From an uncultured bacterium (GTDB lineage: Bacteria > Patescibacteriota > Minisyncoccia > Moranbacterales > UBA2206), in assembly GCA_903841185.1 (NCBI GenBank), contig CAIMIV010000059.1:32442-96441 (forward strand): a stretch of 64,000 nucleotides of DNA. Reading direction: 5' to 3'. Position 1 is the stretch's first letter. Each line of letters starts with the position of its first letter. Positions 11,224 to 63,991 of this stretch are shown piece by piece. The translations under genes and the position numbers were made by a program. Below the pieces are notes generated by a model, which saw only the letters and a list, made by a program, of their open reading frames with translations, made no database searches and had not been told where the DNA came from.

Positions 11224-11664
11224 TCATAGCTTAGAAACAATCAACACTTTAATTTTTTTATTTCCCCAGGCAACAGCTTTTTCACGACCAGCGTCGCCTT
11301 CTCCCATGAAGAGATCCAGTCGTCGTCCCTTGATTTTTCCACCGGTATCCTTAGCAGTACCACGTCCAAAGCCAGGGACATGAAACACCGTGCCTTCGGG
11401 AAAAATCAACTTATCAGCCGCCAGTGTACCTTCTTCGGGAACTGAACCAGAACTGGTTTTTTTTCCGGATCCGTTCATTTTGACATCCTTTTTGTAGCTG
11501 CCTTTCACATATTTTTTTTGATTTGGAAGTGGCTTATAGTAAGCCGTGACTGTCATTTTTAACTCTGGGGTTTTTATTCCCTTCGCTTCGACACCGACGG
11601 CTTTTGAAAAACTACCTCCTAACCAAAAACATATGGCCAGCACTACAATTCTGCTTAACTGCAT
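11224..11664 (-). CDS. 3D-domain protein (MltA/YuiC-like, cell-wall associated) with a signal peptide.
   Basis: 146 aa. N-terminal signal peptide. C-terminal 3D domain with its conserved Asp triad (..GRGTAKDTGGKIKGRRLDLFMG..). Confidence 0.7.
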   Translation of the reverse strand: MQLSRIVVLAICFWLGGSFSKAVGVEAKGIKTPELKMTVTAYYKPLPNQKKYVKGSYKKDVKMNGSGKKTSSGSVPEEGTLAADKLIFPEGTVFHVPGFGRGTAKDTGGKIKGRRLDLFMGEGDAGREKAVAWGNKKIKVLIVSKL

Positions 11665-11963
11665 TTTTTTCCTCCTGTATTTTTTTCATGACAATGCTAA
11701 TTGTAAAAGATCTTACTATTAGTCTATCTGAAAAAGATGAATAAACGGTATTAATACTCCAGGGCAAGCCCTGGACCAACAGGTTTCCGCGGCAAGCCGC
11801 GAAGTATTAAACCTTTTGTTGTTGTCGCTCGCTCGGAAATGAAAAACTATTTTCATTTCACTCACTTCGCTAAACAATAAAAAATGAACTAAAGAACAGT
11901 CCCTTTTGGGATGCGCAACTTGTTGCCGTTCAATTATAGCACACTCTGCAAATCCTGTCACGC
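11665..11963 (-). promoter_or_regulatory. Promoter plus a structured leader of about 260 nt for the 3D-domain gene.
   Basis: On the minus strand: GTGACA, a 17-nt spacer, then TATAAT (plus 11958-11963 and 11933-11938). The leader contains two adjacent GC hairpins with identical CAAG loops (CAGGG-CAAG-CCCTG and CGCGG-CAAG-CCGCG at 11759-11800), bracketed by an inverted ttaatact repeat. Confidence 0.4.
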
Positions 11964-11974
11964 TTTTTTCTCCT

Positions 11975-12005
11975 GCAAAGAAAAAACTGCTTAAACAAGC
12001 AGTTT
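11975..12005 (-). terminator. Bidirectional rho-independent terminator downstream of rpsI.
   Basis: aaaaaactgctt, loop aaac, aagcagtttttt. Confidence 0.6.
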
Positions 12006-12770: not shown

Positions 12771-13178
12771 TTAATGGGTTACTTCGATCGTATGTTTATG
12801 TTGATCATTGGTATAAAGAAGCAGTCTGGTCATCATGCGGTCTCGCAATTTATTTTTGCAAAGCATCCCATAGACAGCCCCCTCAACTGCCTTTCGGGAA
12901 TCCTTGACAATTTGATCTTTCAACTTAATAGTAGTCATTCCACCCGGAAAACCACTGTAATGGTTATACACCTTGCCTTCCATCTTATTACCGGTCACTT
13001 GCAGGCTGTCAGTATTAATCACGACCACAAAATCACCGGCGTCAATGTTCGGAGTAAAATCCACCTTGTTTTTTCCTCGTAGAATAAGCGCTATTTCAGT
13101 AGCCATTCTCCCCAAAGCCTGATCTTTTGCATCAAACAAATGATATTTTCTTTGAATTGTTTTCTTTACTTTACTCAT
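12771..13178 (-). CDS. rplM: Ribosomal protein L13.
   Basis: 135 aa, MSKVKKTIQRKYHLFDAKDQALGRMATEIALILRGK.. Confidence 0.9.
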   Translation of the reverse strand: MSKVKKTIQRKYHLFDAKDQALGRMATEIALILRGKNKVDFTPNIDAGDFVVVINTDSLQVTGNKMEGKVYNHYSGFPGGMTTIKLKDQIVKDSRKAVEGAVYGMLCKNKLRDRMMTRLLLYTNDQHKHTIEVTH

Positions 13179-13274
13179 AAATTTTACCTACTCACCAATT
13201 CTCGCTAATTATTTTTTTGAATTGATATCAGGTCCTTATATTTTTTACGTTACTTCAATTGAATGGGAGAACTA

Positions 13275-13640
13275 TTATTTGACAAATTCGATAATGGCCA
13301 ACTTGGCAGCATCTCCTTGTCTCGGGGCTATCTTGATAATCCGAGTGTAACCGCTGTCTCGCTTGGAAAACTGCTCCAAAAATTCACCAGTAACTTTTTT
13401 CACCGCCATTAAAGGAAGTTTTATCCTCAAATCACGCTTAATAGTCACCAACTTTTCAGGATCTCTGGATAGCTTCGCTCGGTTGATAATTCTGTCAATC
13501 TTGGCTTTCATTTCCTTGGCCTTGGCTTCGGTGGTTTTGATTTTTTCTTCCATAATCAAACTACCTAACATTGTTCGGAACAAAGCTGTCCGCTGATTTC
13601 TAACTCTGCCCAATTTTCGTCCTTTTTGTAAATGCTTCAT
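13275..13640 (-). CDS. rplQ: Ribosomal protein L17.
   Basis: 121 aa, MKHLQKGRKLGRVRNQRTALFRTM.. Confidence 0.9.
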   Translation of the reverse strand: MKHLQKGRKLGRVRNQRTALFRTMLGSLIMEEKIKTTEAKAKEMKAKIDRIINRAKLSRDPEKLVTIKRDLRIKLPLMAVKKVTGEFLEQFSKRDSGYTRIIKIAPRQGDAAKLAIIEFVK

Positions 13641-13734
13641 GATTGTATAAAACCCTAACTTACACTAATTATTTTTTAATTTTTATTCGCAAATGTATCC
13701 GATATTGTGTCTTGTCCATTTGCGACGCAATTGA

Positions 13735-14715
13735 CTATTTATCTTGTCTTAGATTAACACCATAATCTCCGATAGCTTTTTTCACTTCTTTCACACCTTT
13801 CGCTCCCATTCCTTCCAAATCAGTTAGTTCCGCCTCGGTCATTTTGATAATGGCACCGATATTGCCAATCTTGTTGGCCTCCAAAACATTCAAAGTTCTG
13901 GTGGACAGATTTTTCAGCGCGGTCACCTCCACTTTCTTGGTATCATCCTTCTTCTCCACAACCACTTCTTTTTCTTTTTCCATCATCACCGGCCCTTCTT
14001 CAATCACCACCGCCTCTTTCTTAGCTTCTTTTTCCACCGAAGTGAAAACAGAGAATTGCTCCACTAGGATATCTACTGCTTTAGAAAAAGCTTCTTTAGG
14101 TTCAATGCTGCCATCAGTCATAATTTCCAAAGTAATTTTTTCGTAATCCGTCTTTTTTCCTACGCGCATGTTAGCCACATCATAATTCACTCTTTTAATC
14201 GGAGTATAGATAGCATCCACGGCAATCACGCCGATTTCTTTCTCTGTTCTGTTTTGTTGCTCCACTGGCACATAACCAATACCATTGCCAATTTCCAATT
14301 CCATTTCCAGCTCGCCTTTAGCGCCGGTAATGGTGGCAATCACAGCGTCTTTAGTAACCACTTCGATGCCAGTTGGACATTCAATCATACCTGCGGTCAC
14401 AACTTTTTCGCCTTTCACTTTCAAAGAAATCTTGGTCGGTTCTTCGTTAAAAGATCTAAATCTGACTTGTTTGAGGTTCAAAATGATTTGAATAACATCT
14501 TCCAAAACGCCAGGTACAGTAGAAAATTCGTGAGTCACGCCTTTAATTTTAACAGAAGTGATCGCTGATCCGGGAAGAGAAGAAAGAAGCACTCTGCGAA
14601 GAGCATTCCCTAAAGTCGTTCCGTATCCAGGATAACATCCTTCAATTTCAAACTTGCCTGTTTTTTCATCAAGCATAGTAAGCTTTGGTTTCTGAGGAAG
14701 TGTTATTGATTGCAT
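13735..14715 (-). CDS. rpoA: DNA-directed RNA polymerase alpha subunit.
   Basis: 326 aa. The N-terminal domain has LGNALRRVLLSSLPGSAITSVKI, and there is a C-terminal alpha-CTD. Confidence 0.9.
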   Translation of the reverse strand: MQSITLPQKPKLTMLDEKTGKFEIEGCYPGYGTTLGNALRRVLLSSLPGSAITSVKIKGVTHEFSTVPGVLEDVIQIILNLKQVRFRSFNEEPTKISLKVKGEKVVTAGMIECPTGIEVVTKDAVIATITGAKGELEMELEIGNGIGYVPVEQQNRTEKEIGVIAVDAIYTPIKRVNYDVANMRVGKKTDYEKITLEIMTDGSIEPKEAFSKAVDILVEQFSVFTSVEKEAKKEAVVIEEGPVMMEKEKEVVVEKKDDTKKVEVTALKNLSTRTLNVLEANKIGNIGAIIKMTEAELTDLEGMGAKGVKEVKKAIGDYGVNLRQDK

Positions 14716-14856
14716 AATTTTATACCGATACGAACCTACGAATGAATTCGAATCTACGAACCCCTAGCTTCATATCGTTATTCTTTTTTAAATTATTTAA
14801 ATTACTTTAATTTCGTAGATTCGTGTGTAACATTCGTAGTTTCGCATCGGTTTTTT

Positions 14857-15489
14857 TTATCTTGAGTAATATTCAACAATGATTTGGGTATCCACATTGA
14901 TACCAATTTCGTCTCTTGTAGGAGCACTGGTCACCTTGGCTTCCATCTTAGTAGTATCAAAACTAATCCAGGATGGGAAATCTTTTTTATTCTTGATTAC
15001 CGCCACCACCTCTTTAAAATAATTCTTTTCTTTTTTAGTGGCGTTGATAGCAATCATATCCCCGATTTTCACTTCGGCAGAAGGAATAGTCATTTTTTTG
15101 CCGTTGACGCTTATCAATCCGTGGTTCACAATTTGTCTGGCCTGCGCTCGAGAAACGGCAAATCCGGCTCGATATACGATGGAATCTAGTCGCATCTCCA
15201 AACGAGTCAGCAATAAATCACCGGTAATACCTTCTTTATTGGAAACTTCATCAAAATGTTTTCGAAACTGTCTCTCCATCACACCATAGATTCTTTTGAT
15301 CTTCTGCTTAGCGGAAAGCTGGGTGCCATATTCACTTTGGCCACGAGAAACTTTTTTTCCATGCACTCCCGGCGCATAAGCCCGTTTCACCATACCACAA
15401 TTTCCAGTGCTGCAACGGTCACCTTTAAGAAACAGTTTTTCACCTGCTCTTCTACATTTTCGACATTTTGCTTCGGTATCTCTAGCCAT
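14857..15489 (-). CDS. rpsD: Ribosomal protein S4. The start is trimmed to the internal MARDTEAKCRKCRR.
   Basis: The zinc-ribbon N-terminus CRKCRRAGEKLFLKGDRC and the S4 domain are present. The track ORF extends 26 aa upstream of the canonical S4 start. Confidence 0.9.
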   Translation of the reverse strand: MARDTEAKCRKCRRAGEKLFLKGDRCSTGNCGMVKRAYAPGVHGKKVSRGQSEYGTQLSAKQKIKRIYGVMERQFRKHFDEVSNKEGITGDLLLTRLEMRLDSIVYRAGFAVSRAQARQIVNHGLISVNGKKMTIPSAEVKIGDMIAINATKKEKNYFKEVVAVIKNKKDFPSWISFDTTKMEAKVTSAPTRDEIGINVDTQIIVEYYSR

Positions 15490-15532
15490 AGTATTAAAAA
15501 AATTTTGAAATTTAAAATTTAAAATTATTGAT

Positions 15533-16018
15533 TTAGATTCTTCTTGGTTTCTTTGGTCGACAACCATTATGTGGAATAGGCGTAATATCTTTAATCAATA
15601 ATAATTCAAAACCATTATTAGACAGAGCTCGAATAGAAGCTTCTCGGCCACTACCAACACCTTTCACAAACACTTCCAGCTCTTGCAAGCCATATTTTTT
15701 CACTTTTTCCGAAACGCTAGCCACAACCTGCGTAGCGGCATAGGGAGTCGCTTTTTTCGCTCCTTTGAATCCCATCATCCCGGAAGAAGCCCACCCCAAA
15801 ACACCTCCGTTGATATCCGCAATGCTCACGATAGTGTTATTGTAAGTGCATTTCACTGTCGCCCGGCCTTTGAGGATTTGTCTTTTGGCTTTTTTGACCT
15901 TTCCTGATTTAGCAGTTTCAGCAGTCTTCACCTCTGCTGCCTTGCCCTCCTCGGAAACTGCCCCTTTTTCCTCCTTAATTTCTTCAGTTGTAGCTTTTTC
16001 TTCAGTCATAATATTCAA
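15533..16018 (-). CDS. rpsK: Ribosomal protein S11 with an acidic/basic N-terminal extension of about 40 aa.
   Basis: ..RQILKGRATVKCTYNNTIVSIADINGGVLGWASSG.. is core S11. Confidence 0.9.
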   Translation of the reverse strand: MNIMTEEKATTEEIKEEKGAVSEEGKAAEVKTAETAKSGKVKKAKRQILKGRATVKCTYNNTIVSIADINGGVLGWASSGMMGFKGAKKATPYAATQVVASVSEKVKKYGLQELEVFVKGVGSGREASIRALSNNGFELLLIKDITPIPHNGCRPKKPRRI

Positions 16019-16112
16019 ATTAACTCTAATGTTTAAATAAATTTATGCAAAATTTTTATTTGATGTTGCTATTCGCATTAATTCGACTTAATTATTCGCA
16101 ACTATTAGCATC

Positions 16113-16499
16113 TTAAGTCTTCTCTGTCTTCACTCGACCGCTACCCATCGTTCTTCTGACATTGCCTCGCACTGTTCGGTTGTTAGTCTTAGTTCGTTGT
16201 CCTCGCACAGGCAAACCTTTTTGGTGTCTGGTCCCGCGATAGCAACCTACTTCTTTCAACCGCTTGATATTATTCTTAACTGCATGTTTCAATTCTCCTT
16301 CTACTCGCAAATTCTTTTCGACATACTCTCGAATCTTATTGCCTTGCTCCTCGGAAAGATCTTTTGTTCTTATTTGTTTGGATATATCCAGCGCGTCCAA
16401 CACTTTAGCCGCAAAACTCGGTCCAATGCCATAAATATAGGTAAGGGAAATTTCTATTCTTTTTTCATCAGGAATATTTACTCCAGCGATTCTTAACAT
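16113..16499 (-). CDS. rpsM: Ribosomal protein S13.
   Basis: 128 aa, MLRIAGVNIPDEKRIEISLTYIYGIGPSFAAKVL.. Confidence 0.9.
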   Translation of the reverse strand: MLRIAGVNIPDEKRIEISLTYIYGIGPSFAAKVLDALDISKQIRTKDLSEEQGNKIREYVEKNLRVEGELKHAVKNNIKRLKEVGCYRGTRHQKGLPVRGQRTKTNNRTVRGNVRRTMGSGRVKTEKT

Positions 16500-16584
16500 A
16501 TGCTAATTTTAATACTAATTATATCCGAATTGTAATTTTTTAAAGATTCGCCTTGTTTCGGACTTATCGAATCCCAATTTGTAT

Positions 16585-16698
16585 CTAGCCTTGTCTTTGT
16601 TTGTGCTTTGGCGTAATACAAATCACGAAAAGCACACCTTTTCGCTTTACTATTTTACATTTGTCACAAATCTTTTTAACTGATGCTCTTACTTTCAT
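16585..16698 (-). CDS. rpmJ: Ribosomal protein L36, missed by the ORF track because it is under 60 aa.
   Basis: The reverse complement translates to [37 protein letters not shown] (37 aa). Its start is 2 nt after the infA stop, the canonical infA-rpmJ-rpsM order. Confidence 0.8.
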
Positions 16699-16699
16699 A

Positions 16700-16921
16700 T
16701 TATTTTAATCTTTGAATTATTCTGCCTTTGGATAGGTCGTAGGGACTCATCTCAATGAGCACTCTATCGCCAGGGAGAAGCCTAATATAATTAACTCGCA
16801 TTCTGCCGGAGATATGAGCCAGGACGACATGCCCATTATCCAGCTTCACCTTAAAGGTTGTACTGGGCAAATTCTCTTCCACCACACCCTCCAGTTTAAC
16901 TAATTCTTTATTATTTTCCAT
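16700..16921 (-). CDS. infA: Translation initiation factor IF-1.
   Basis: 73 aa with an S1-like OB fold: ..[39 protein letters not shown].. Confidence 0.9.
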
Positions 16922-17095
16922 ATTTTATCTAATTTGACTGCCCGTTAATAGGCAGGAAAAGCATAACCAAAAAAATAGACGGAGATTTCCCTGGGGCAAA
17001 AAAAATTACCTCAGGAATAAAAATCGATCCTAATTCATGCATTTCATTCTCTTCCCTCTATTTTGAAATTTATATATCTTCTAACACCTTCTATT

Positions 17096-17124
17096 ATCTT
17101 AACGATATATTCAAATCTTGTCAA
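17096..17124 (-). promoter_or_regulatory. Candidate promoter for the infA-rpmJ-rpsM.. operon.
   Basis: On the minus strand: TTGACA (plus 17119-17124), a 17-nt spacer, then TAAGAT (plus 17096-17101). Confidence 0.35.
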
Positions 17125-17191
17125 CCCCACACCCCCTTTAGTCGAAATAATAATAAAATTACCAGCCCAAAAGCTTGAATTTATTTTACTC

Positions 17192-19204
17192 CTAATTCAC
17201 TACCGGGTCAAGAGAAATGGTCACGCGACTCTCATAAACGGGTATTTTGCCGGTAATAAAGGATGGCCAATACACGATTTCCACTTTTTCAATGTCGCTA
17301 GCATGTTCTTTTATATAAGGCTGAATTTCCCCTTCTGGTTTCCCTAGAAGAGCTTGTTTTATTTTCTCCAAATCAATTTCCGGCACAATGTTTCCGGTGG
17401 CATGCACCCGAATAACCAGACTTCCCTCTTTGAAATTCACGTCAGTCTTGCCAAAATCCAGATGAATAGAATTTTCCGGAATTTGAGCACCGTGTTCCCC
17501 TTTTTTGCCCAGTGCATTTGTCACAATCGCATTCAAATCACTTTCTCTAAAAACCAATGCATTAGCCGTGACCTTCACCGTAATGGAAAAATTATCTGCC
17601 ATGTCGCCCGAGGATTTAGTCAGGGTATACACAGCATCATCAATGCTCACGGCGTCATCCAAGAAAATATAGTCCGCTCCCACGGAATCCTTTAATTTTT
17701 GCGTAATGGTGGCTTTCAATTCTTGTAGAACTTTGGTTTTGGCAGTATTGATATCACTATCGGAAACAGTCTTTACCTTTTGACTACCTTGACCGCCACC
17801 GATCATCGCTGCAAATGACTTGGCATAAATTTTCTTATATTTTTCACCGCCACTACTCTCAAAACCAGGAATACTAAAAGAAGTTGGCGCTATATTATAT
17901 TCCTCACCCGATTCATCCGCCACCACATCCGCCTCAATAGCGCCTGGCTTATTCTCACTCCCGACCGTTTCCATCCCCGGAACCGTAATGGCCTTCACCA
18001 ATCTGAATGTTTTTTTATCTACGCTTTCAAATCGAGTGGTTGCCACCAATGGTTGTGGACTAGCACTAAATTCATTATAAACAGTAATCACCCCGCGCGC
18101 CTTTTGATTAGAAGAGTCTTTAGCACCTGTTGTTTCATAGCTCTTAGTCAGCTCGTCAGCAAGGGTGACTGCCTTTACAGGAATAATTTCATTTACCACG
18201 TCCATTTCACTCACCTCGCTATTGCCATCCACTTGCAACTCCACTGCTTGCATTTTATTTTTTGCGAAAACATTAATAGTTGCCTTAGGCAAGAAAAGAT
18301 AGGCCGCTGACCCCAAAATAGCCAAAACAGCCACCATAGTAAATAAAAAGAAATATTTACCCATACTGCTACCCACATTAATACTCTTGTATTCATCTTC
18401 CCGATTGCTTGATGCTTTTTTCTGCTCAAAAAATTTACCGGCTTTTTCCGCGCTATTTTCCTCTTCATGCTCTTGCATAAAAGCATTTTCTTTACTGAAA
18501 TCATCTAATCGCTCTTGTTTGAAAATTTTCTTTGAGCTACTCTTAGCCACCCTCTCCGGCACTTCATCAGTCGGAGCATTATTTTCCACAATTTCCATAT
18601 TTCTAATCATATCCATGGGGGCAAACATCCCACCCTTCGCTCGCTTGCTCTTGAAGGAGGGTTGTTGTTTGCGAAGCTCTTCACTCACGTCTATCACCAA
18701 TTCTTTGTTGATTATTCTTTCCTCGTCCTCTTCTGCTTGAAAAATTTCCTGATTTCTTTTTTCTGAATAGACTATCGGATCAGCCATAGAATCCGCGGTA
18801 CTTGATTGATAATAGCCGGCAGATCCAATCTGATTGAAATCTTTTTTATTCTTGCCAATTTTTTCATTCACACTGCTACTATCCAAGCCAATCTCCACCA
18901 AACTCTCCTCCAAATTATTCGACGCCTCCATCTCCCAGCCATCAATATCATCCAACTTTTGCTCCACCTCAATACCCGCTTTCTCAATCAGCAATTTGCC
19001 TAATTTATCTTGCGTAACGATAATAAGCTCTTTCTTAAAACTTTCAGCTTCTTTTTTCAACAATTTCAAATTGACAATGCTCTGAATCAAAATGGCTCGT
19101 TTAGGCACGACAATAACCACCTCCTTGGATTTAGATTTTCGCAATCTATCCACAATAGAAGTGATCTCCTCATCAATATCAATGTAAAATGTTTGATGTG
19201 TCAT
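17192..19204 (-). CDS. Hypothetical large bitopic membrane protein, occupying the place where secY-adk-map or ftsZ is normally found.
   Basis: 670 aa. About 290 aa of N-terminal cytoplasmic sequence with an acidic low-complexity stretch, one TM (FFLFTMVAVLAILGSAAYLFL), and about 360 aa of C-terminal extracytoplasmic domain. No tubulin GGGTGTG motif. Confidence 0.6.
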   Translation of the reverse strand: MTHQTFYIDIDEEITSIVDRLRKSKSKEVVIVVPKRAILIQSIVNLKLLKKEAESFKKELIIVTQDKLGKLLIEKAGIEVEQKLDDIDGWEMEASNNLEESLVEIGLDSSSVNEKIGKNKKDFNQIGSAGYYQSSTADSMADPIVYSEKRNQEIFQAEEDEERIINKELVIDVSEELRKQQPSFKSKRAKGGMFAPMDMIRNMEIVENNAPTDEVPERVAKSSSKKIFKQERLDDFSKENAFMQEHEEENSAEKAGKFFEQKKASSNREDEYKSINVGSSMGKYFFLFTMVAVLAILGSAAYLFLPKATINVFAKNKMQAVELQVDGNSEVSEMDVVNEIIPVKAVTLADELTKSYETTGAKDSSNQKARGVITVYNEFSASPQPLVATTRFESVDKKTFRLVKAITVPGMETVGSENKPGAIEADVVADESGEEYNIAPTSFSIPGFESSGGEKYKKIYAKSFAAMIGGGQGSQKVKTVSDSDINTAKTKVLQELKATITQKLKDSVGADYIFLDDAVSIDDAVYTLTKSSGDMADNFSITVKVTANALVFRESDLNAIVTNALGKKGEHGAQIPENSIHLDFGKTDVNFKEGSLVIRVHATGNIVPEIDLEKIKQALLGKPEGEIQPYIKEHASDIEKVEIVYWPSFITGKIPVYESRVTISLDPVVN

Positions 19205-19323
19205 ATAATTACCGATTCGAATCTACGAATTAAATGCGAATCTACAAAATTATTTTTTAAAATTTTATTCGCATGGGCGCTTTCGTAGTGCGCCTGCCTG
19301 CCGGTAGGTAGGCTTTTCGCATG

Positions 19324-20592
19324 CTATTTTTGAATCATCTTCACTGCTCGCCGCAAGATGCCAGCCATTACTTTTTCCTCTCCCGCCAAGTCTAGCGCCA
19401 AATTAGCCAGTCCCATCGGAGTGATATCTTGCGGATCCCGCAATTCTCCCGTAGCATCAATAATATTCACCACATCTTTCGGTTGCAAGAAACTAACCTG
19501 AGGCGCCTTCGCAAACGGCAAATCCTTTGTCCACTTAGAGCCGGTCAGCGCTTTTTTGATACCCGGCAAACCTGAGCCACCACCGCACAGAAAGAAGCGG
19601 GAAGGCAACACATCTGAACCGGCAAATTCCGCTAAGGACAATTCTACTCCGGAAAGCCAAACCGCGCAATCATCACTAAGCATTTTTTCAATTTTATAGG
19701 TGACGTCTCCACCCAGTCGGCCTTCGGCATATTTAATTTTCAAAACTTCTGCTTCTTCGAAAGTAATGCCCAATTCTTGCGCTAGACGTTTAGTGAAGGC
19801 GCGACCTCCCAGAGCAAACATCTTCGTTCCTTCCAAACCGCCATTTCGCACTACCGCAATATCCGTCGTACCTCCTCCGATATCAATAAAAATAGCATTA
19901 AAATCCAAAGCATCCTCAATACCCATTGATCGAGCGACAGCATAGGGCTCAGCCGCGATGCTCAAAAGCTCCAATTTCAATTCTTCCGCAATAGATTGCA
20001 AAGCACCCAAATGCACCATCGGCGCATAGGCATTGAAAACTGAAATAGAAACATCTCGTCCCTGGAAGCCCACCGGATTGGTGACGCGATAGCCGTCAAT
20101 GCGCACATCCACAATCGCTGCGTTAATCAATTTCACTTCAATTTCACTGTGCCCGGTTTCCCATGCCAGCTGTTGGCGAATGCGGTCAAAGGCTTTCCAT
20201 TGTACTTTTTGAATAATATTTTTTAGTTCCGGCAAATCAATTCTGATTTCCGGTTTTATACGTTCATAATGCACCGTAGTGGTGGTGCCTTTTACTAACT
20301 CACCCGCAATGCCCACGATGGCCTTTTTCACTTTTTTCACCCCCGCCATCAGCTTCGCCGCTTGAATAGCTTTTTTGGAATTTTCAATTACGCCGGCAAT
20401 GTCTGAAACCGCTCCACTTTGCATATCCCCCAGGCGTTGCCTGGCTCGTCCGACACCAGTCACAATGCCATTGCCAGTTTCCGCATCAATCTTAAAAACC
20501 AAAGCTTTCACCACCTCGGTTCCAATATCCAGAGAAAGCAAGTAGTCCGATGACCCACCGTGACTGCCTAAAATTTTAGAAAAAATACTCAT
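19324..20592 (-). CDS. ftsA: Cell-division actin-like ATPase, FtsA-like.
   Basis: 422 aa. Actin-fold phosphate motifs LDIGTEVVKALVF and FIDIGGGTTDIAVV, an SHS2/1C-type insert, and a C-terminal amphipathic tail (AGILRRAVKMIQK) as in FtsA. Confidence 0.75.
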   Translation of the reverse strand: MSIFSKILGSHGGSSDYLLSLDIGTEVVKALVFKIDAETGNGIVTGVGRARQRLGDMQSGAVSDIAGVIENSKKAIQAAKLMAGVKKVKKAIVGIAGELVKGTTTTVHYERIKPEIRIDLPELKNIIQKVQWKAFDRIRQQLAWETGHSEIEVKLINAAIVDVRIDGYRVTNPVGFQGRDVSISVFNAYAPMVHLGALQSIAEELKLELLSIAAEPYAVARSMGIEDALDFNAIFIDIGGGTTDIAVVRNGGLEGTKMFALGGRAFTKRLAQELGITFEEAEVLKIKYAEGRLGGDVTYKIEKMLSDDCAVWLSGVELSLAEFAGSDVLPSRFFLCGGGSGLPGIKKALTGSKWTKDLPFAKAPQVSFLQPKDVVNIIDATGELRDPQDITPMGLANLALDLAGEEKVMAGILRRAVKMIQK

Positions 20593-47532: not shown

Positions 47533-47733
47533 AAAAATCTTTAAATTAACTTATACCCATTTTACCACGAAAAGCTCCACTCGCCTACTGTCCTATGAAA
47601 AAAAGAGGCTGCCCAAAGCCTCTTTTTATGTCCACACGGGCTAAAACTATTTTAATGCATGTATTTAAAATAAAAGGGCTACGCATAGCGTAACCCTTTG
47701 GGAATAAATTATTTTTTAGTTCCCACTTGTTTG

Positions 47734-48570: not shown

Positions 48571-48956
48571 TGTTTTCTCCTTTGTCTAATTTTTAAAAAA
48601 CTAAGAGTCTGTTTATGATCTCTCTTTCGTCGCGAGAGATTTAAATTTCGAGCGAAAATTGTGAAAAATGAGGAGGAATATCTGGATATTTCGACGAGTT
48701 TTGTCCGCCAGCTGGCGGAGCAGCCGGAATTTCAATTTCGCAGCAGAATACGGAGATTATGAACAGGCTCTAGACCAACAAAAAACCGATCAGGAGATCG
48801 GCTCGTTTCTCATCACTATTTAGCTTAGTAGCTAAAAACCAGCCGACATCCATAATCGATTAAAGAAGAAGAAACTATTTTGGCTAGTGATTTTATTCAT
48901 ACCCACATCTTAGCAAGAATATATTTATTGTCAAGTTCAAAATCCTTCGAGAGAAT

Positions 48957-49028
48957 ATGCTGGAAAATTGGGATAGGATTGAGATTAGATTGGAGCGTGC
49001 GATGGCTTTGATACAATATATTTGCTAG
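48957..49028 (+). repeat. C-element copy 1, which is also a 24-codon ORF MLENWDRIEIRLERAMALIQYIC.
   Basis: Core aaaattgggataggattgag-att-agattggagcgtgcgatggc.. shared with 49682-49741, 61015-61075 and 62108-62170. Confidence 0.55.
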
Positions 49029-49639: not shown

Positions 49640-49741
49640 GGATGGGATGCGACTAGGCCTGCCCGCCGACGAAGTGGGAATAATTGGGACAGCATTGAGA
49701 TGAGATTGGAGCGTGCAAACGCATCATTGAGACAAGCTTAG
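49640..49741 (+). repeat. C-element copy 2.
   Basis: ..tccgcctccggatgggat..actagg...aattgggacagcattgagatgagattggagcgtgcaaacgca...tag. The conserved frame reads ..NNWDSIEMRLERANASLRQA*. Confidence 0.55.
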
Positions 49742-57084: not shown

Positions 57085-57356
57085 GACTTGTTTCCCTCCT
57101 CCCGGGTGTTTTTTAAATTTTGGTTTAGCTATATTAAGAACAATTATAAACGCATGGTCACTACAATCTATCAATAAGCCAGATTAGCATCTTTCCTAGC
57201 GCATGTCAAAACCAGTCCTGAGTCTTATTTTTATTTTTTACACAGGGTCGTGCCTGCCTGCTCGCCGTCCTAAAGCTCTGCGAAGCGGGTCGGTAGGCGG
57301 GTTAGAACTATTTTTATGAAAAATAATAAATATATTCCCATTTCCAATCTAAAATA

Positions 57357-59732: not shown

Positions 59733-59820
59733 AAGTATTTATTTCACTAGTTAACAAGTACATTATAACACTAATAATTCTAATTTTATATTTTACATAA
59801 AAAAATGTAAGAGTTGAAAC

Positions 59821-59851
59821 AAAAAAGAGGCTCTAAATAGCCTCTTTTTTG
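59821..59851. terminator. Bidirectional hairpin terminator. It is homologous to the one next to tRNA-Trp at 63219-63250.
   Basis: A6, gaggct-ctaaat-agcctc, T7. Confidence 0.6.
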
Positions 59852-59870
59852 TTAATTTTCAGAGTACGGG

Positions 59871-60008
59871 ATGCAGGAATTTCGTCCTCACTCCGATTCG
59901 CGGTACGGGGTGGCGATAGATCCTCTCCGCCAGCTGGCGGATCGAATCTGCGCCCGCCTTGGCGGGATAGTCTCACTGCCACCCGTTCGATTCCTGCTGC
60001 ATCCACAT
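59871..60008. other. GC-rich structured tRNA-like element of about 140 nt, unclassified.
   Basis: Perfect 8-bp terminal pairing GGATGCAG/CTGCATCC. A canonical T-loop-like GTTCGATTCC without a matching T-stem. The internal palindrome CCGCCAGCTGGCGG and a CAAG-type capped hairpin. On the minus strand its 3' end continues into an approximately 20-nt copy of the tRNA-Trp 3' end plus trailer. Confidence 0.3.
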
Positions 60009-60133
60009 AAAAAAACGGCGAGTCCAACATGTGAACCAACCGTTTTTAGTACTTTACGCTATGCAACTATCCATAGTCGCGGTTTATTTTTGAATACAAG
60101 AATATCATCTAACAATAACATAATCTCTTGCGC

Positions 60134-60805
60134 TTATGCAGTTATCCTCGCCAGACAAACATCAATTCCCCTTAAGAGAATCCCCTGAACCTGCTCATTA
60201 TCGACAAACACATTCGGCCGACCAATTGGCGGAATCTCACCATCCATGATGATGCAACCGCTCCAAGCGTCAAGCAGAATCTCAAAAACCACCTTGCCAT
60301 CGAAGATGAATGAGAACTTGACTCCTGGGAGTTCCTTCATCGTCACATCGAGTGTGGCATTAATCGCTATTCCCCATTCTTCGGCCGCTTTGATGATATC
60401 TTTAGTCAAACACCCCCGCATTAATTTTTCAGACACCTCAAGCTGTATTTTTTGACGACGTGTCATGAGCGCGTTAAGATGATTTTTGTTCACAAGATTG
60501 ATTGACTCCAGCCCGACAGATGAAAGCATGTCCAGAGAAAATTCATCCCTGAGCGCGATGCCCAAAGGAAACCGCGCTTCAATATGACGATTTTGATCTG
60601 TTTCCCATTGACCCGAAACAATCACAGCATCGACGATTTCAGGGTGCAGGAAAACGATACTAATCTTGTTGCCATCAATCAGCCCCTTAAGATATGCCAG
60701 AGATGCAATTCCGTTCACGCCCTTTTCCCACGTCATAATGACCGTCGGCCCTATTTGTGGGTATCTTTTCCCCATTTCAGAAAGAATATGCTTGCTTTTC
60801 ATCAA
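60134..60805 (-). CDS. Hypothetical protein.
   Basis: 223 aa, no motif recognised. Confidence 0.45.
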   Translation of the reverse strand: MMKSKHILSEMGKRYPQIGPTVIMTWEKGVNGIASLAYLKGLIDGNKISIVFLHPEIVDAVIVSGQWETDQNRHIEARFPLGIALRDEFSLDMLSSVGLESINLVNKNHLNALMTRRQKIQLEVSEKLMRGCLTKDIIKAAEEWGIAINATLDVTMKELPGVKFSFIFDGKVVFEILLDAWSGCIIMDGEIPPIGRPNVFVDNEQVQGILLRGIDVCLARITA

Positions 60806-60988
60806 TCCCCCCCCTCAGTTATTGGTTGTTTTGGCAACATGCCATTTGTTATATATTCTTACAACATTAAAATTATTCAAGAACAATAGATAATATTAAC
60901 AACAAATATCAATTTTGTCAACCATTCACATCCTTCAAACACAAAAAACACTTGCTTAAAGCATTTTTTACATATTTTGCGCGGGGTT

Positions 60989-61075
60989 ATGGACAGGACT
61001 AGGAGTAATATTTTGAAAAATTGGGATCGGATTGAGGTAAGATTAGAGCGCGCAATGGTTTTGATGAGCAAATAA
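60989..61075 (+). repeat. C-element copy 3, which is also a 28-codon ORF MDRTRSNILKNWDRIEVRLERAMVLMSK.
   Basis: Shares ..acatattttgcgcgg.. and aaaattgggatcggattgaggtaagattagagcgcgcaatgg with copy 4. Confidence 0.55.
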
Positions 61076-61087
61076 TGTGTCGTTTTT

Positions 61088-61540
61088 TTATAATTCTTCC
61101 TTTATTTTAGAACTTTTAGGATGATGGCATACCAACTTAGAGGAATAATATCCACCCACAAATGCAAGCGTATGGATAGTCCCAAAAGCAAAGCCGGTGC
61201 CGAAGAGCCCCATTCCTAAAAAAGTTAGACCTCGCAGAGAAATTCCAAAGGGATAATAATCAAGCAATAATGGGAACACATTATAATACATTCCCCAAAG
61301 CGATGCGACGACAACTCCCCCAACCGCCACTTTGATAAATTCATTTTTCTCTAGATTAAAACCAGACAAAAATATAATCGAAAATATAAAATAGACAATC
61401 GCTTTTGCAAAGAAATATGGCACTGTCTCCATTGGATTTGAAAATAAAAAGTGAGAAAAATAATCAATGCCAAAAACGCCAACAATGGATATAATCAGAG
61501 AGCTAATCGCTATTTTTATATATTTTTTTTCCATAATCAT
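61088..61540 (-). CDS. Hypothetical polytopic membrane protein.
   Basis: 150 aa, 4-5 TM, Gly-rich helices. Confidence 0.45.
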   Translation of the reverse strand: MIMEKKYIKIAISSLIISIVGVFGIDYFSHFLFSNPMETVPYFFAKAIVYFIFSIIFLSGFNLEKNEFIKVAVGGVVVASLWGMYYNVFPLLLDYYPFGISLRGLTFLGMGLFGTGFAFGTIHTLAFVGGYYSSKLVCHHPKSSKIKEEL

Positions 61541-61543
61541 AAT

Positions 61544-61903
61544 CTATTCAACGATTATTTTCCCAAGCATTGAAGGATGAATGGCACAAGAATAATCAAA
61601 AGTTCCAGCATCACTAAAGGTGAAAGAAAAACTTTGACCTTTGCTTAGTTGGCCTGAATTGAAAGTGGCAGACTTGATTTGATGTTGAGCTGGATCATTA
61701 TTAGTCCAAGTTACGGTCGTGCCTTTTTTGACAGTCAACGTTCCAGGATTAAAAGTAAAATTTTGGATATTAACCATATTAGATCCTTGAGTTGGTACTG
61801 CTATAGGAGTGGACGTATTATTGGAGGTTCCTCCATATAAGCTACACCCACCAAGAATAAACGCACCAAACAATATTAGAGACAACGCGATGTTTTTTTT
61901 CAT
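61544..61903 (-). CDS. Cupredoxin (amicyanin/plastocyanin-like blue copper protein) lipoprotein. The start is trimmed to MKKNIALS.
   Basis: Lipobox ILGGC. Type-1 copper ligands H (..PAQHQIK..) and C-x2-H-x2-M in ..DYSCAIHPSMLGKIIV. Confidence 0.7.
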   Translation of the reverse strand: MKKNIALSLILFGAFILGGCSLYGGTSNNTSTPIAVPTQGSNMVNIQNFTFNPGTLTVKKGTTVTWTNNDPAQHQIKSATFNSGQLSKGQSFSFTFSDAGTFDYSCAIHPSMLGKIIVE

Positions 61904-62014
61904 ATTTTTAAGTTTAATAATTAATCTAAAAAGTATCACATATTAATTATACACCTAAAGACCTCAATATACATCAACTAATCCAACCTATCCGGAGATC
62001 ACTCATCTTCACAC

Positions 62015-62043
62015 AAAAAAATGCTTAATTAAAGCATTTTTTA
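62015..62043. terminator. Perfectly palindromic bidirectional terminator.
   Basis: A7, atgctt-aatta-aagcat, T6. Confidence 0.5.
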
Positions 62044-62170
62044 CATATTTTGCACGGAGCCATGCCTGTCCGCCTCTGGAGGAGATATAACTAGGAACAC
62101 TATTTTGGAAAATTGGGATAGGATTGAGGTGAGATTGGAGCGTGCGATGGCGCTAATGAAAGCTTTGTAG
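62041..62170 (+). repeat. C-element copy 4.
   Basis: ..acatattttgcacgg..tccgcctctggaggagat..actagg..ttggaaaattgggataggattgaggtgagattggagcgtgcgatggcgctaatgaaagctttgtag. The conserved frame (TTG)ENWDRIEVRLERAMALMKAL* has no ATG. Confidence 0.55.
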
Positions 62171-62174
62171 CTTT

Positions 62175-63119
62175 TTATTTCCGTATTCTTTCACGACTAT
62201 CCATATATCTTTTGAGCGCATCCTTGGATGTAAGCCAATTACGACCTTCTTTGTGTGCTTCAAGTTTTCCACTGCGCGCTAAAAGATTAAGATATTTTTC
62301 TGTGAATTTTGAATCTTTAGCCAAGTCGGCAAGAAAAATAAATTTTTCTTGGCTTTTTTTGCTTGGCATCAATATTTTCAAATAGATATCCAGCGTTCTC
62401 TCCACTGCTCGAGCAATAAAGTTCACAAAATCAGCATATTCACCTTTATCAGCGGATGACAAAGTTTTATAGTATTTTTTGCGATCATTTTTCAGCACAA
62501 TCACCAATGGAAAACCTACTTGCATCAGAATAATGTTCATGGCCAAGCGTGAGGTTCTGCCATTACCATCAAAAAATGGATGGATGTATACCAATTTATG
62601 ATGCAAAATACTAGCCAGCTCAACCGGATGCATCTTTTTCTTATTATCCCCCACCCAATCAATCAGATTCCGCATAAGCTTCGGGATTTCTAATGCTTCC
62701 GGCGGCCTATGATCTGCACCGCTAATAATCACTCCACTGTTTCTGTATTTACCCGCCCATTCCTTATCAATGTTCTGTTGCACTATCTGATTAAGTGATC
62801 GAATCAAGTTTTCCGAAAAAGTATTTTTTTTATCCTTCTCTATCAAATCATACAGATACTCCAAAGCTTCTTGATGATTTTTAGCCTCCAAATGATCTTT
62901 AAGTGGTTTACCCTTAATAGTCAGCCCCTCATTTATTACTAAATAAGTTTCTTTAAGCGTCAAGCTATTACCCTCAATTGCATTGGAGTTGTAGGTCATT
63001 TCTATTTCAAATTGCTCTTTGAGTTTGGCAACTGCCGACACTGGTAATGGACGAAATGAATTGAGCAAAGCCAATTTATCATCGATTCTTTTTTGAATTT
63101 TTTTGTCTAAATATTGCAT
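62175..63119 (-). CDS. Fic/Fido-domain protein (class II), a paralogue of 55295-56182.
   Basis: 314 aa. Fic motif HPFFDGNGRTSR. Inhibitory motif SNAIEG in the N-terminal helix. Confidence 0.85.
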   Translation of the reverse strand: MQYLDKKIQKRIDDKLALLNSFRPLPVSAVAKLKEQFEIEMTYNSNAIEGNSLTLKETYLVINEGLTIKGKPLKDHLEAKNHQEALEYLYDLIEKDKKNTFSENLIRSLNQIVQQNIDKEWAGKYRNSGVIISGADHRPPEALEIPKLMRNLIDWVGDNKKKMHPVELASILHHKLVYIHPFFDGNGRTSRLAMNIILMQVGFPLVIVLKNDRKKYYKTLSSADKGEYADFVNFIARAVERTLDIYLKILMPSKKSQEKFIFLADLAKDSKFTEKYLNLLARSGKLEAHKEGRNWLTSKDALKRYMDSRERIRK

Positions 63120-63218
63120 ATATTCTTAATATGGTTTAGCTCTTTATTGACAGTATACCATATTAAGGAAAATAGTCAATATCGCTCAAATAAAGCTCCA
63201 ACTTTCTACTGCCCATAT

Positions 63219-63250
63219 CAAAAAAGAGGCTATTTAAAGCCTCCTTTCTT
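63219..63250 (-). terminator. Terminator for tRNA-Trp.
   Basis: Minus strand: gaggct-ttaaat-agcctc followed by TTTTTT. Confidence 0.55.
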
Positions 63251-63266
63251 GGTTAATTTTCAGAGC

Positions 63267-63337
63267 ACGGGTGGAAGGAGTTGAACCCTCGCCAGAGCTT
63301 TTGGAGAGCCCCGTTCTACCGTTAAACTACACCCGCA
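63267..63337 (-). tRNA. trnW: tRNA-Trp (anticodon CCA).
   Basis: Manual fold of the reverse complement: acceptor GCGGGTG/CACCCGT, D-arm GTTT-AACGGTA-GAAC, anticodon stem GGGCT/AGCTC with loop CT-CCA-AA, a 4-nt variable loop, T-arm GAGGG-TTCAACT-CCTTC, and discriminator G. CCA is not encoded. Confidence 0.7.
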
Positions 63338-63343
63338 TATTCA

Positions 63344-63991
63344 TTATTTCGAAATTTCTTTAATCAAAAACATTATCTCCTGCCTTATTTGTCTTCCATA
63401 ATATCTAACGCTAACACAGCCCTGATAATCTTCCTTTTTTCTCTTTCCAGTATTTGGCTTATTATATGGTTTTGTAAATTGCAATCTCGGTATCTTTGTA
63501 ATCTCAGACCAAAATGATATCTGTTCGTTAGCATCATGATAATCATGCAAATGAATCAACGCCCTGAATTTACTTTCATCAACATCAAACGCTTTTCGGA
63601 AAGTATCAATAAAATACTTTACAAGCTTCGGATCGGAGTTTATAAAAGTCAGCTGTGATTTTTCCGTTTTTCCACCTTCACACCAATACAGTAATGCACA
63701 CACGATCTTTAAATCTTTCTTTAAAAAATTACATTGATTGATATTCTTTTTGGCATTTGCCGATATTTTTCCATCCTCTATTGTTATTCTATTTTTGACT
63801 GAATTATTTCCCCTAATTCGACCGATTACTCCCAATTTATGAATTCTTTCTTTAGCAATTTCTGATAATTCAATATTCCTCAACCACAAACTCGCAGTGC
63901 TTTTTGATATTTCAAGCTTTTCACTTATTTCCCTAAATGAAAAACCATTCTTTCTCAATTTTTCTGCTTCATTTTTCAGACCTGTCTTCAT
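63344..63991 (-). CDS. HTH-domain protein, hypothetical, with a possible LAGLIDADG-like segment.
   Basis: 215 aa. N-terminal HTH (..GFSFREISEKLEISKSTASLWLRN..). ..LLYWCEGGKT.. is reminiscent of a dodecapeptide motif but unproven. Confidence 0.45.
   Translation of the reverse strand: MKTGLKNEAEKLRKNGFSFREISEKLEISKSTASLWLRNIELSEIAKERIHKLGVIGRIRGNNSVKNRITIEDGKISANAKKNINQCNFLKKDLKIVCALLYWCEGGKTEKSQLTFINSDPKLVKYFIDTFRKAFDVDESKFRALIHLHDYHDANEQISFWSEITKIPRLQFTKPYNKPNTGKRKKEDYQGCVSVRYYGRQIRQEIMFLIKEISK

Follow-up and report, generated by a model that had tools for sequence, protein, structure and literature searches.

A structured tRNA-end-capped element closes an integrase-free islet at tRNA-Trp in an uncultured Moranbacterales bacterium and may belong to a family of mobile tRNA-end cassettes

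Tycheposons of Prochlorococcus are islands targeted to tRNA genes, and integron cassettes, each an open reading frame (ORF) with its attC site, are recombined as folded single-stranded DNA. Targeting of tRNA and tmRNA genes together with tandem accretion is also described for the ssrA islands of Dehalococcoides (PMC3146451). Here we analyse a stretch of 64,000 nucleotides (nt) from an uncultured bacterium of the Moranbacterales (contig CAIMIV010000059.1; the whole stretch is referred to as the window), in which a 3.3-kb cassette with genes for a Fic protein, a cupredoxin, a membrane protein and an orphan protein of 223 amino acids (aa) lies downstream of a tRNA-Trp gene and is closed by a structured element of ~145 nt. 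A first-pass annotation had read the direct duplication of the tRNA-Trp 3' end around these genes as an attL/attR footprint of site-specific integration; the duplication is a genuine footprint of an insertion associated with a tRNA 3' end, but its far copy is more than a bare att scar. In our judgement the chances are somewhat better than even that the distal repeat and the element are part of a family of mobile tRNA-end cassettes, and we place less confidence in the mechanistic details.

As with the tRNA- and tmRNA-targeted islands, insertion appears to occur in the 3' part of the gene, which is kept by a supplied 3' end, with direct repeats around the cargo, stacking of units and cargo of the defence type. 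Unlike such islands, the family has no integrase in or near its units (loci surveyed), its distal boundary is a structured core of ~130-180 nt common to at least 14 tRNA species, most of its units are free of cargo (~135-250 nt between the repeat copies) and no phage or plasmid copies were found. The organisation can also be likened to that of integron cassettes, in that cargo of one orientation precedes a structured element that covaries, units may be empty or stand in tandem, a single chromosomal site can gather an array and, by the same analogy, the enzyme need not be encoded inside the cassette. In contrast to integrons, no IntI was present among the scanned ORFs and no attI was seen, attC-type motifs not having been searched for; and unlike an attC hairpin, the core has several helices and long invariant single-stranded joints, its target is the tRNA 3' end and its repeat measures 17-76 nt.

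The element and its helices, as delineated by the fold, the family profile hidden Markov model (HMM) and the family alignment with its covariation, are as follows:

59865-60009, minus strand: structured RNA-type element ('tRNA-end-capped element')
59990-60009 (5' arm) with 59865-59880 (3' arm, tRNA-like, ATTCCTGCATCCCGTA), minus strand: helix P1
59978-59984 with 59908-59914, minus strand: helix P2
59953-59966, minus strand: hairpin Pa
59918-59949, minus strand: hairpin P3

The 3' arm of the element is at the same time the start of the distal repeat copy. With a GC content of 0.46 against a background of 0.32-0.38, the element folds at -64 kcal/mol (z=-4.1 relative to shuffled sequence), and this fold recovers P1, P2, Pa and P3, the closing helix P1 comprising 16 base pairs (bp; UAUG-U-GGAUGCA-GCA-GGAAU with AUUCC-UGCAUCC-CGUA). 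A profile HMM built from 57 other family members, with the window copy left out, returned a single match in 64 kb, at 59998-59864 on the minus strand (E=5.7e-11), and the window copy carries the 5' motif GGAWUCGAAY-GGG with P1, P2 and P3 in the family register. The structured element is the true distal boundary of the islet. What the first-pass annotation had taken for ~25 nt of degenerate similarity to the tRNA T-arm beyond the distal block is actually the 3' strand of the closing helix; neither ARAGORN nor the Rfam tRNA model (also at E<=10) detected a cloverleaf, a tRNA or a tRNA pseudogene at 59.8-60.1 kb, and a tRNA pseudogene or an intron-containing tRNA at 59.8-60.0 kb was rejected. No Rfam 15 family, the tmRNA, HEARO/omega-RNA-type and small-ribozyme models included, reaches its gathering threshold on the window element: Whalefall-1 RNA (RF01762) scores 19.4 bits (E=0.015; gathering score 37) in a region that varies within the family, is absent in the canonical member and appears to be due to chance. 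In public gene calls a 65-aa 'protein' lies over the element (59833-60039, minus strand) and likewise at L145:6703-6900 (L-numbers designate loci of Moranbacteria relatives or metagenome loci compared with the window); this ORF is almost certainly spurious.

The duplication around the islet comprises these features:

63265-63336, minus strand: tRNA-Trp(CCA) (ARAGORN 63265-63336; Rfam tRNA model 63266-63336, 61 bits)
63219-63271, minus strand: proximal repeat copy, with CCCGTG (last nucleotides of the tRNA), the 14-nt trailer CTCTGAAAATTAAC and the terminator GAGGCT-TTAAAT-AGCCTC plus T-run
63195-63214, minus strand: 'GGGCAG box' GGGCAGTAGAAAGTTGGAGC, directly after the native terminator
59820-59870, minus strand: distal repeat copy, with CCCGTA, the same 14-nt trailer (59851-59864) and the terminator hairpin GAGGCT-ATTTAG-AGCCTC plus T-run (59820-59853)

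The tRNA-Trp gene, which had been placed on the correct strand with coordinates (63267-63337) off by 1-2 nt, begins with GCGGGTG..., ends with ...CTCCTTCCACCCGTG and has an unusual T-loop, TTCAACT. Read in the direction of the tRNA, the proximal copy runs from ...CTCCTTCCACCCGTG through CTCTGAAAATTAAC to CAAGAAAGGAGGCT-TTAAAT-AGCCTCTTTTTTG and the distal copy (59870-59820) from ...CATCCCGTA through CTCTGAAAATTAAC to AAAAAAGAGGCT-ATTTAG-AGCCTCTTTTTTG. A repeat search of the window resolved the duplication into two collinear direct blocks, 59845-59881 versus 63246-63282 (37 nt, 81%) and 59820-59848 versus 63219-63247 (29 nt, 83%), whose spacings of 3401 and 3399 point to a 2-nt indel. When the tRNA 3' end, trailer and terminator were compared with the window by BLAST, 63271-63219 aligned with 59870-59820 (83% over 53 nt, E=4.3e-10), and stretching the alignment into the tRNA-like part gave 79.7% over 64 nt (E=1.4e-9); the same-orientation block reported at 59821-59872 is thus real, though 'near-identical' was too strong a term for it. 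The exact repeat core of 14 nt, GTTAATTTTCAGAG, is confined within the window to these two sites, and of the tRNA proper the copies share only CCCGT exactly, the remainder of the repeat being trailer and terminator. Part of the similarity reflects a terminator typical of the lineage, because the GAGGCT/AGCCTC stem recurs at 47601-47626 and after tRNA-Trp in relatives. The GGGCAG box is missing after the distal copy and present after a remnant at 47.6 kb (see below). The terminator hairpins of the two copies match at 91% as an inverted repeat versus 83% as a direct repeat; the 6-nt loop is inverted between 59827-59848 and 63226-63243 (TTAAAT versus ATTTAG on the tRNA strand), as in hairpin-loop flip inversions.

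The element is one of a large family, apparently from bacteria of the candidate phyla radiation (CPR), that is not in Rfam 15 and of which we found no published description, full-text literature searches, including a search with the motif itself, having returned none. On 14 typical loci, Rfam 15 matched only tRNA and tmRNA, and for the canonical member no match of relevance appeared at E<=10. A metagenome set of at least 120 loci was gathered with a degenerate 22-nt pattern from the element 5' end, which fixes GGAWTCGAAYGGG..G.AGYGA, and the HMM gave at least 113 matches in at least 99 metagenome loci; among the matches listed, 93 are near full length and the median GC content of the element is 0.59 versus 0.41 for the locus. 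Further copies, found in relatives with nhmmer, always lie inside a tRNA cluster: L015 carries one after tRNA-Tyr, L019 a partial one and L022 two, after tRNA-Trp and after tRNA-Tyr. The 5' pattern had no match in 2.9 million viral contigs and the canonical member no BLAST match in phage or plasmid collections; on these zero counts an attP origin from a phage or plasmid was rejected.

Pair statistics were determined on the consensus structure of an alignment of 58 sequences (A2). Its P1 pairs GGGAWU at the 5' end with AWUCCC at the 3' end and is followed by the joint CGAAC, its P2 pairs GGGYRG with CYRCCC, and the interior holds the variable hairpin Pa, the long hairpin P3, the joint AGGRCAAsGA and the variable hairpin Pc, before a joint GAgGCGgAA runs into the 3' strand of P1. 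In the alignment 95.7% of cells are paired as opposed to 35-46% with partners slid, and 244 cells are compensatory versus 15-65 in slid controls, the observed value being reached in none of 500 shuffles. Sequences entered A2 only if they had the inner 5 bp of P1 and a complete P2, and these helices are therefore paired by construction; in P3, which was no selection criterion, all 9 of 9 pairs covary. G-U pairs (~27) outnumber A-C pairs (~7), which assigns the structure to the tRNA-sense strand. There is no -10 hexamer at a constant distance upstream of the core, and a promoter at that position was rejected on this ground.

The family is tied to tRNA genes at both ends. A tRNA or tmRNA on the same strand ends within 110 nt upstream in 70 of the 105 copies with enough flank (among the metagenome matches listed; tRNA calls at family loci are those of ARAGORN only), at a median distance of 47 nt (interquartile range 41-53). 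The adjoining genes represent 14 tRNA types (Glu, Gln, Trp, Gly, Tyr, Ser, Asn, Leu, Lys, Arg, Met, Pro, Asp and Thr) plus tmRNA, and the interval from the tRNA to the core has a constant layout, A-rich, hairpin, T-rich and finally a few purines. Downstream of the core follows an exact copy of the tRNA 3' end, 13-76 nt long and starting from AWTCC (T-loop nt 58), that in some cases runs on through trailer, terminator and spacer as far as the core; this duplication was found in more than 50 independent members. On the 5' side, the W of the element motif complements nt 59 of the adjoining tRNA in 69 of 71 pairs, the search pattern having allowed either base, and contiguous complementarity of the 5' arm to the tRNA from nt 53 onward extends over 10-20 nt (at least 13 nt in 24 of 71). 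The closing helix mimics an acceptor/T-stem minihelix in L118, L036, L103 and L119 and in the window, where the 5' arm is complementary to the entire T-stem and to the acceptor 3' strand.

Comparison between loci points to mobility of these units. At L015 an insertion of 195 nt (hairpin, core and 19-nt repeat) separates tRNA-Tyr from tRNA-Thr, at a site where L012, L014 and L017 have 5-9 nt, and among relatives the family is patchy, with differences in presence and in host tRNA. Units stand in tandem in L078, L124 and L103, ends are doubled in L138, and cores are truncated in L031, L038, L053, L127 and L142. Cargo in the orientation of the element lies between tRNA-Trp and the core in L044 (a radical-SAM enzyme with a Cys-rich peptide), between two near-identical hairpin-plus-core units in L134 (a pilin-like protein) and between two copies in L107 (a 305-aa membrane protein); the window copy resembles these three cargo-carrying members. 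A family unit comprises the host tRNA 3' end copied from T-loop nt 58 on, by which the tRNA stays intact, an A-run, hairpin and T-run, optional cargo in element orientation, the core and a second tRNA-end copy, with which the core 5' arm (GGAWUCGAAC...), complementary to tRNA nt 53-62 and beyond, pairs as P1. This anatomy calls for an insertion that is aimed at the T-loop/3' end of a tRNA gene and spares the tRNA. In the mechanism that we favour, such a unit would be non-autonomous, and an enzyme whose gene lies elsewhere would insert it at the T-loop or 3' end of tRNA genes; for this enzyme the folded core with P1, as RNA or as single-stranded DNA, may be the recognition structure, much as attC is in integron cassettes.

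The two repeat copies in the window differ in ancestry. The whole tRNA-Trp is the allele of the close relatives L008, L010, L012 and L014, the GAGGCT terminator type after tRNA-Trp is kept in L008, L012, L014 and L017, and the GGGCAG box is also conserved in relatives; judged by these sequence comparisons, the proximal copy is a native, vertically inherited tRNA-Trp with its terminator and box and not an element-borne attL. The distal arm ATTCCTGCATCCCGTA, by contrast, agrees with the tRNA-Trp end of another Moranbacteria clade (L011 and L017-L020: ATTCCTACATCCCGTG) at 14 of 16 positions versus 11 of 16 for the window's own, and complementarity of the element 5' arm extends over 11 nt on the L018-type allele versus 4 nt on the window T-loop (TTCAACT). 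By its sequence, the distal tRNA-like arm is a foreign tRNA-Trp allele of the L018/L020 type; it would be unable to serve in the window tRNA because it mismatches the 5' acceptor strand (two pairs), and the T-stem is also mismatched. The 14-nt trailer, identical in both copies, is absent from all sampled relatives. The Fic protein of the islet (Fic2) is 89% identical to its counterpart in L018, a distant relative (tblastn), compared with only 61% for the core protein PSP1, and the gene for the L018 homologue follows the same terminator and box.

Several observations weigh against membership of the window copy in a mobile family, or against the mobility of that family. The window copy is atypical, scoring 37 bits versus 80-100 for other members, lies 3.27 kb from its tRNA (same strand) rather than ~40-60 nt away, has an arm that mismatches the adjoining tRNA-Trp and an exact repeat that begins only at CCCGT and not at nt 58. 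In the family, 35 of the 105 copies have no called tRNA within 110 nt, some of them being second copies in arrays or lying beside tRNAs missed by ARAGORN; the 5' motif, with its CGAAC that is complementary to tRNA nt 53-57, owes part of its conservation to the way in which the search pattern was built, and the selection of A2 leaves P3, the outer P1 pairs and the nt-59 test as the only unbiased evidence. ORF surveys did not reveal the mobilising enzyme, so that mobility is argued from comparative patterns only. Contigs of the source population included no empty-site or circular variant of the islet: gene order is the same in all those that carry the 215-aa helix-turn-helix protein (see below) or the ABC protein, the loci compared by sequence are identical in sequence to the window, and population polymorphism at the islet was discarded since all contigs examined share the arrangement. 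Finally, the native box follows the proximal and not the distal copy, the reverse of what a simple target-site duplication leaves; such a duplication in situ was rejected on this ground, and an extra recombination step must be assumed. The islet would have arisen in a donor whose tRNA-Trp was of the L018 type, bearing an ordinary repeat that ran from nt 58 to the end of the terminator, and the cassette would then have entered the window lineage by homologous recombination with its left crossover at the conserved tRNA 3' end. Such a crossover would account for the retained native tRNA, the exact repeat from CCCGT and the foreign distal arm.

Among the alternatives, a stationary functional non-coding RNA gene, for example a tRNA decoy or processing partner whose shared 3' end, trailer and terminator arose by local duplication and gene conversion with no insertion, is unlikely, yet it has points in its favour. 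On this view the intervening 3.3 kb would be ordinary genes, much as in the paralogous tRNA-terminator modules that the first-pass annotation had considered. Purifying selection on the structure is strong, the spacing to the tRNA is tight with a conserved A-run/hairpin/T-run layout, the closing helix mimics the acceptor/T-stem minihelix, at full length in some copies, and the surveys brought up no mobilising gene. A stationary gene is at odds with the differences in element presence and host tRNA between close relatives, with the clean empty site in the Tyr-Thr spacer, with flanking repeats that are perfect over 17-76 nt, with tandem arrays, truncated copies and cargo between copies and, in the window, with an arm that comes from a foreign tRNA-Trp allele.

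It is likewise doubtful, though conceivable, that the element is the RNA part of a programmable tRNA-targeting insertion system in CPR bacteria. The 5' arm would then pair with the T-loop and T-stem on the sense strand (nt 53-62+) and the tRNA-like 3' tail with the opposite strand, and insertion would proceed by target-primed reverse transcription or by an RNA-guided recombinase, carrying same-orientation cargo along, which would make it an RNA-defined system of gene cassettes at tRNA genes. RNA-guided insertion would explain why the left boundary is fixed at nt 58 while the right one varies (17-76 nt), why nt 59 matches in 69 of 71 pairs and why cargo is oriented as it is in the window, L044, L134 and L107; no enzyme was found to support an RNA-templated or RNA-guided variant. 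In its size and in having variable ends that match the target DNA, the element resembles the ~150-nt structured RNAs of IS110 (bridge RNA) and of IS200/IS605 TnpB/IscB (omega-RNA); in this family, the 5' arm complements the tRNA sense strand at nt 53-62+ and the 3' tail is identical to nt 58-76. Unlike in those systems, none of their genes is adjacent and Rfam gives no match even at E<=10; to our knowledge, moreover, neither IS110 nor IS200/IS605 elements make long target duplications. An IS200/IS605 omega-RNA or a PATE was rejected on the grounds that no TnpB is near and that the left-end copy always matches the local tRNA, unlike a peel-and-paste outcome, and we know of no IS200/IS605 element or PATE that duplicates 17-76 nt.

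Two other kinds of RNA were considered and rejected. The element is not the tRNA-like domain of a tmRNA, as it has no 5' acceptor strand, no T-arm and no Rfam tmRNA match, and a normal tmRNA lies just upstream of the L102 copy, although GGAUUCGAAC-GGG and ...GGAC resemble tmRNA motifs. HDV-like (theta) and other small ribozymes have the wrong topology and gave no Rfam match. Theta ribozymes are likewise small structured RNAs beside tRNA genes, adjoining phage tRNAs, and are phage-borne and much smaller (PMC10879173; bioRxiv 10.1101/2023.06.13.544163), whereas members of the present family have no match in viral collections, come after a hairpin and T-run and bear a tRNA-end copy.

A classical tyrosine-integrase island that lacks its integrase, with the two copies as attL and attR and the element as cargo or arm-region sequence beside attR, is quite improbable. 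It would fit a direct repeat of the tRNA 3' end that has an intact tRNA at one end and brackets accessory genes, a second repeat family at the same locus (type 2, see below) looks like ordinary att remnants, and the T-loop and the anticodon loop are reportedly standard crossover sites in tRNA genes. As a rule an integrase lineage targets a single tRNA, and here one conserved core occurs at 14 tRNA species plus tmRNA; no integrase was found within 3 kb of an element in the surveyed loci or in the window, no element copies occur in 2.9 million viral contigs or in phage or plasmid collections, the proximal copy is native, and the distal arm could not have belonged to a working tRNA-Trp here. The first-pass annotation had already remarked that the islet contains no integrase, which is borne out by the enclosed genes and the window ORFs tested: Pfam scans of the ORFs at 42-64 kb and of the larger ORFs at 0-30 kb gave no tyrosine or serine recombinase, and the gene table lists none beyond the window end. 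The suggestion that the islet is 'decayed' does not hold, as the distal element looks intact and the family is generally without a nearby recombinase. That two AT-rich intrinsic terminators resemble each other by chance, with no common history, is scarcely credible, for even though the GAGGCT/AGCCTC stem recurs at 47.6 kb and in relatives and the 14-mer is not significant alone (with 2 mismatches allowed, at least 2 matches in 28 of 100 shuffles), BLAST gives E=4e-10 over 53 nt, the trailer is exact outside the hairpin and the duplication recurs in more than 50 family members.

The search for a mobilising enzyme of the favoured tRNA-end cassettes covered 285 ORFs within 3 kb of an element (A2 loci), which were clustered and whose recurrent clusters were scanned with Pfam; no recurrent recombinase, transposase or reverse transcriptase emerged, nor any adjacent DEDD recombinase, TnpB or IscB. 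Large serine recombinases were rejected as partners, being present in only 3 surveyed loci with no clean link. In L037 such a gene (971-2521) fills the 2 kb between tRNA-Lys (2480-2556) and the element (361-523), its 3' end overlapping the tRNA-Lys, which the tRNA-like end of the element mismatches; in L047 and L137 a recombinase of this type is likewise located no more than 3 kb from the element. A reverse transcriptase ~10 kb past the high end of the window (L002:27-968, 313 aa) was set aside as being of the diversity-generating-retroelement type, for which its motif PLGNLTSQ (GNLTSQ) is typical, and as not linked to the element. The 223-aa islet protein was also dismissed, its family being tiny and its homologues not linked to tRNAs or to the element.

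Small GIY-YIG nucleases were rejected as partners since they are just as common beside tRNAs without the element. Their ORFs (83-104 aa) end ~12 nt or less from a tRNA 5' end at L001:9194-9508, L014:12241-12489, L016:12005-12250, L023:11874-12116, L024:8293-8535, L034:510-761 and L044:495-746 (the last overlapping the tRNA) and, found with or without the element, are a separate class of tRNA-associated selfish ORF. A PD-(D/E)XK endonuclease ORF lies between tRNA-Thr and tRNA-Tyr in L022 (~11575-11979), and a small ORF with an HNH-like Cys/His motif, recognised by eye, stands directly upstream of the tRNA-like region in L107 (4858-5166); with these and the GIY-YIG ORFs, nuclease genes seem to abound in the tRNA clusters of these genomes. 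In the window, the gene for a 215-aa helix-turn-helix protein (63344-63991, minus strand) sits between rpmG and tRNA-Trp, and its homologues occupy other tRNA-cluster gaps of relatives (L011:3890-4222, L020:11904-12275, L008:8479-8856), which suggests a mobile, homing-endonuclease-like gene.

The islet is part of a larger variable region in which a second, type-2 repeat family has left two copies:

57301-57339, minus strand: type-2 att-like remnant arm GGGAATATATTTATTATTTTTCATAAAAATAGTTCTAAC, just after the ABC gene (BLAST to the L018 R1/R2 arms, 84% over 37 nt, E=3.7e-6)
47571-47662, minus strand: outer type-2 remnant, with arm CATTAAAATAGTTTTAG, CCCGTG, GAGGCT terminator and GGACAGTAGGCGAGTGGAGC box (BLAST 75% over 57 nt, E=4e-4)

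Type-2 copies have an arm GGGAATATA..CATAAAAATAGTTCTAAC, palindromic as GGAATATA..TATATTCC...CATAAAAATAGTTCTAAC, and then a decayed 3' half of tRNA-Trp that starts in the anticodon stem, with the terminator and GGGCAG box following in some copies. Besides the two in the window they occur at L018:16935-17075 and 19515-19655 (R1/R2) and at L020:16355-16480 (R), with which, together with the window tRNA end, the outer remnant was aligned; the islets of L018 and L020 likewise have no integrase. After the type-2 arm come 58 GC-rich nucleotides, CCGCCTACCGACCCGCTTCGCAGAGCTTTAGGACGGCGAGCAGGCAGGCACGACCCTGTG (57243-57300, minus strand), in which the element HMM gives no match. The variable zone as a whole probably has its outer edge at the 47571-47662 remnant. 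This accretion zone is 15.6 kb long (47.6-63.3 kb) and has at least 3 segments; tandem accretion had been proposed earlier for a Fic-HAD-ABC block at 55.3-59.7 kb, and accretion stands, though with different boundaries and no repeat copy at 55.3 kb. The cargo of the zone includes Fic proteins similar to the PADLOC defence models SoFic and PDC-S04; besides the cupredoxin, the zone also encodes an ABC exporter-like protein, a HAD hydrolase and a MarR/HlyD/AcrB efflux set. From the NUDIX gene to tRNA-Trp the distance is 2.3 kb in L012 versus 17.4 kb in the window, and the region differs in every relative.

Gene and Pfam scans confirmed the content that had been listed for the islet, namely the Fic gene, the cupredoxin and membrane protein genes, the 223-aa hypothetical and two copies of an intergenic repeat, the C-element:

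62175-63119, minus strand: Fic-domain protein Fic2, 314 aa (Pfam Fic 3e-23; PADLOC SoFic 8.7e-38)
62007-62170, no strand assigned: C-element copy 4, intergenic repeat (repeat search)
61544-61939, minus strand: cupredoxin, plastocyanin/azurin-like (Pfam Copper-bind 1e-10; NCBIfam amicyanin-like below the cut-off)
61088-61540, minus strand: 150-aa hydrophobic protein (no family match)
60933-61080, no strand assigned: C-element copy 3 (repeat search)
60134-60805, minus strand: 223-aa orphan protein (GC ~0.45 versus 0.30-0.38 in the flanks)

The genes inside the islet are accessory, and the close relatives L008-L014 lack them downstream of tRNA-Trp. The 223-aa protein has no match in Pfam, NCBIfam or PADLOC, and its family is tiny (3 clusters in 5.8e9 proteins). 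C-elements flank the cupredoxin/membrane gene pair as direct repeats and recur in the window at 48954-49012 and 49677-49716; downstream of tRNA-Trp in relatives they form arrays with a spacing of 0.7-2 kb (6 copies in L012, at 12965-20324, and 2 each in L017 and L008), and they resemble either cassette boundaries or a second non-coding element within the hypervariable region.

For annotation, the family means that island finders relying on tRNA-end repeats will meet many such units of 135-250 nt and that gene callers put a spurious 65-aa ORF on the element. If the favoured reading is right, candidate-phyla bacteria would harbour an abundant family of structured RNAs or mobile elements, with more than 100 copies, that is missing from Rfam 15, and integrase-less islets at the tRNA genes of these small genomes would be explained. 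As both ends of the element match the target, an RNA- or single-stranded-DNA-guided mechanism would be directly testable, and a sequence-programmable, tRNA-targeted module would be of interest to mobile-element biology and genome engineering. The family would also point to a route by which gene cassettes for defence-type Fic, radical-SAM/peptide, pilin-like and membrane proteins could be delivered to tRNA 3' ends, leaving the tRNA undamaged.

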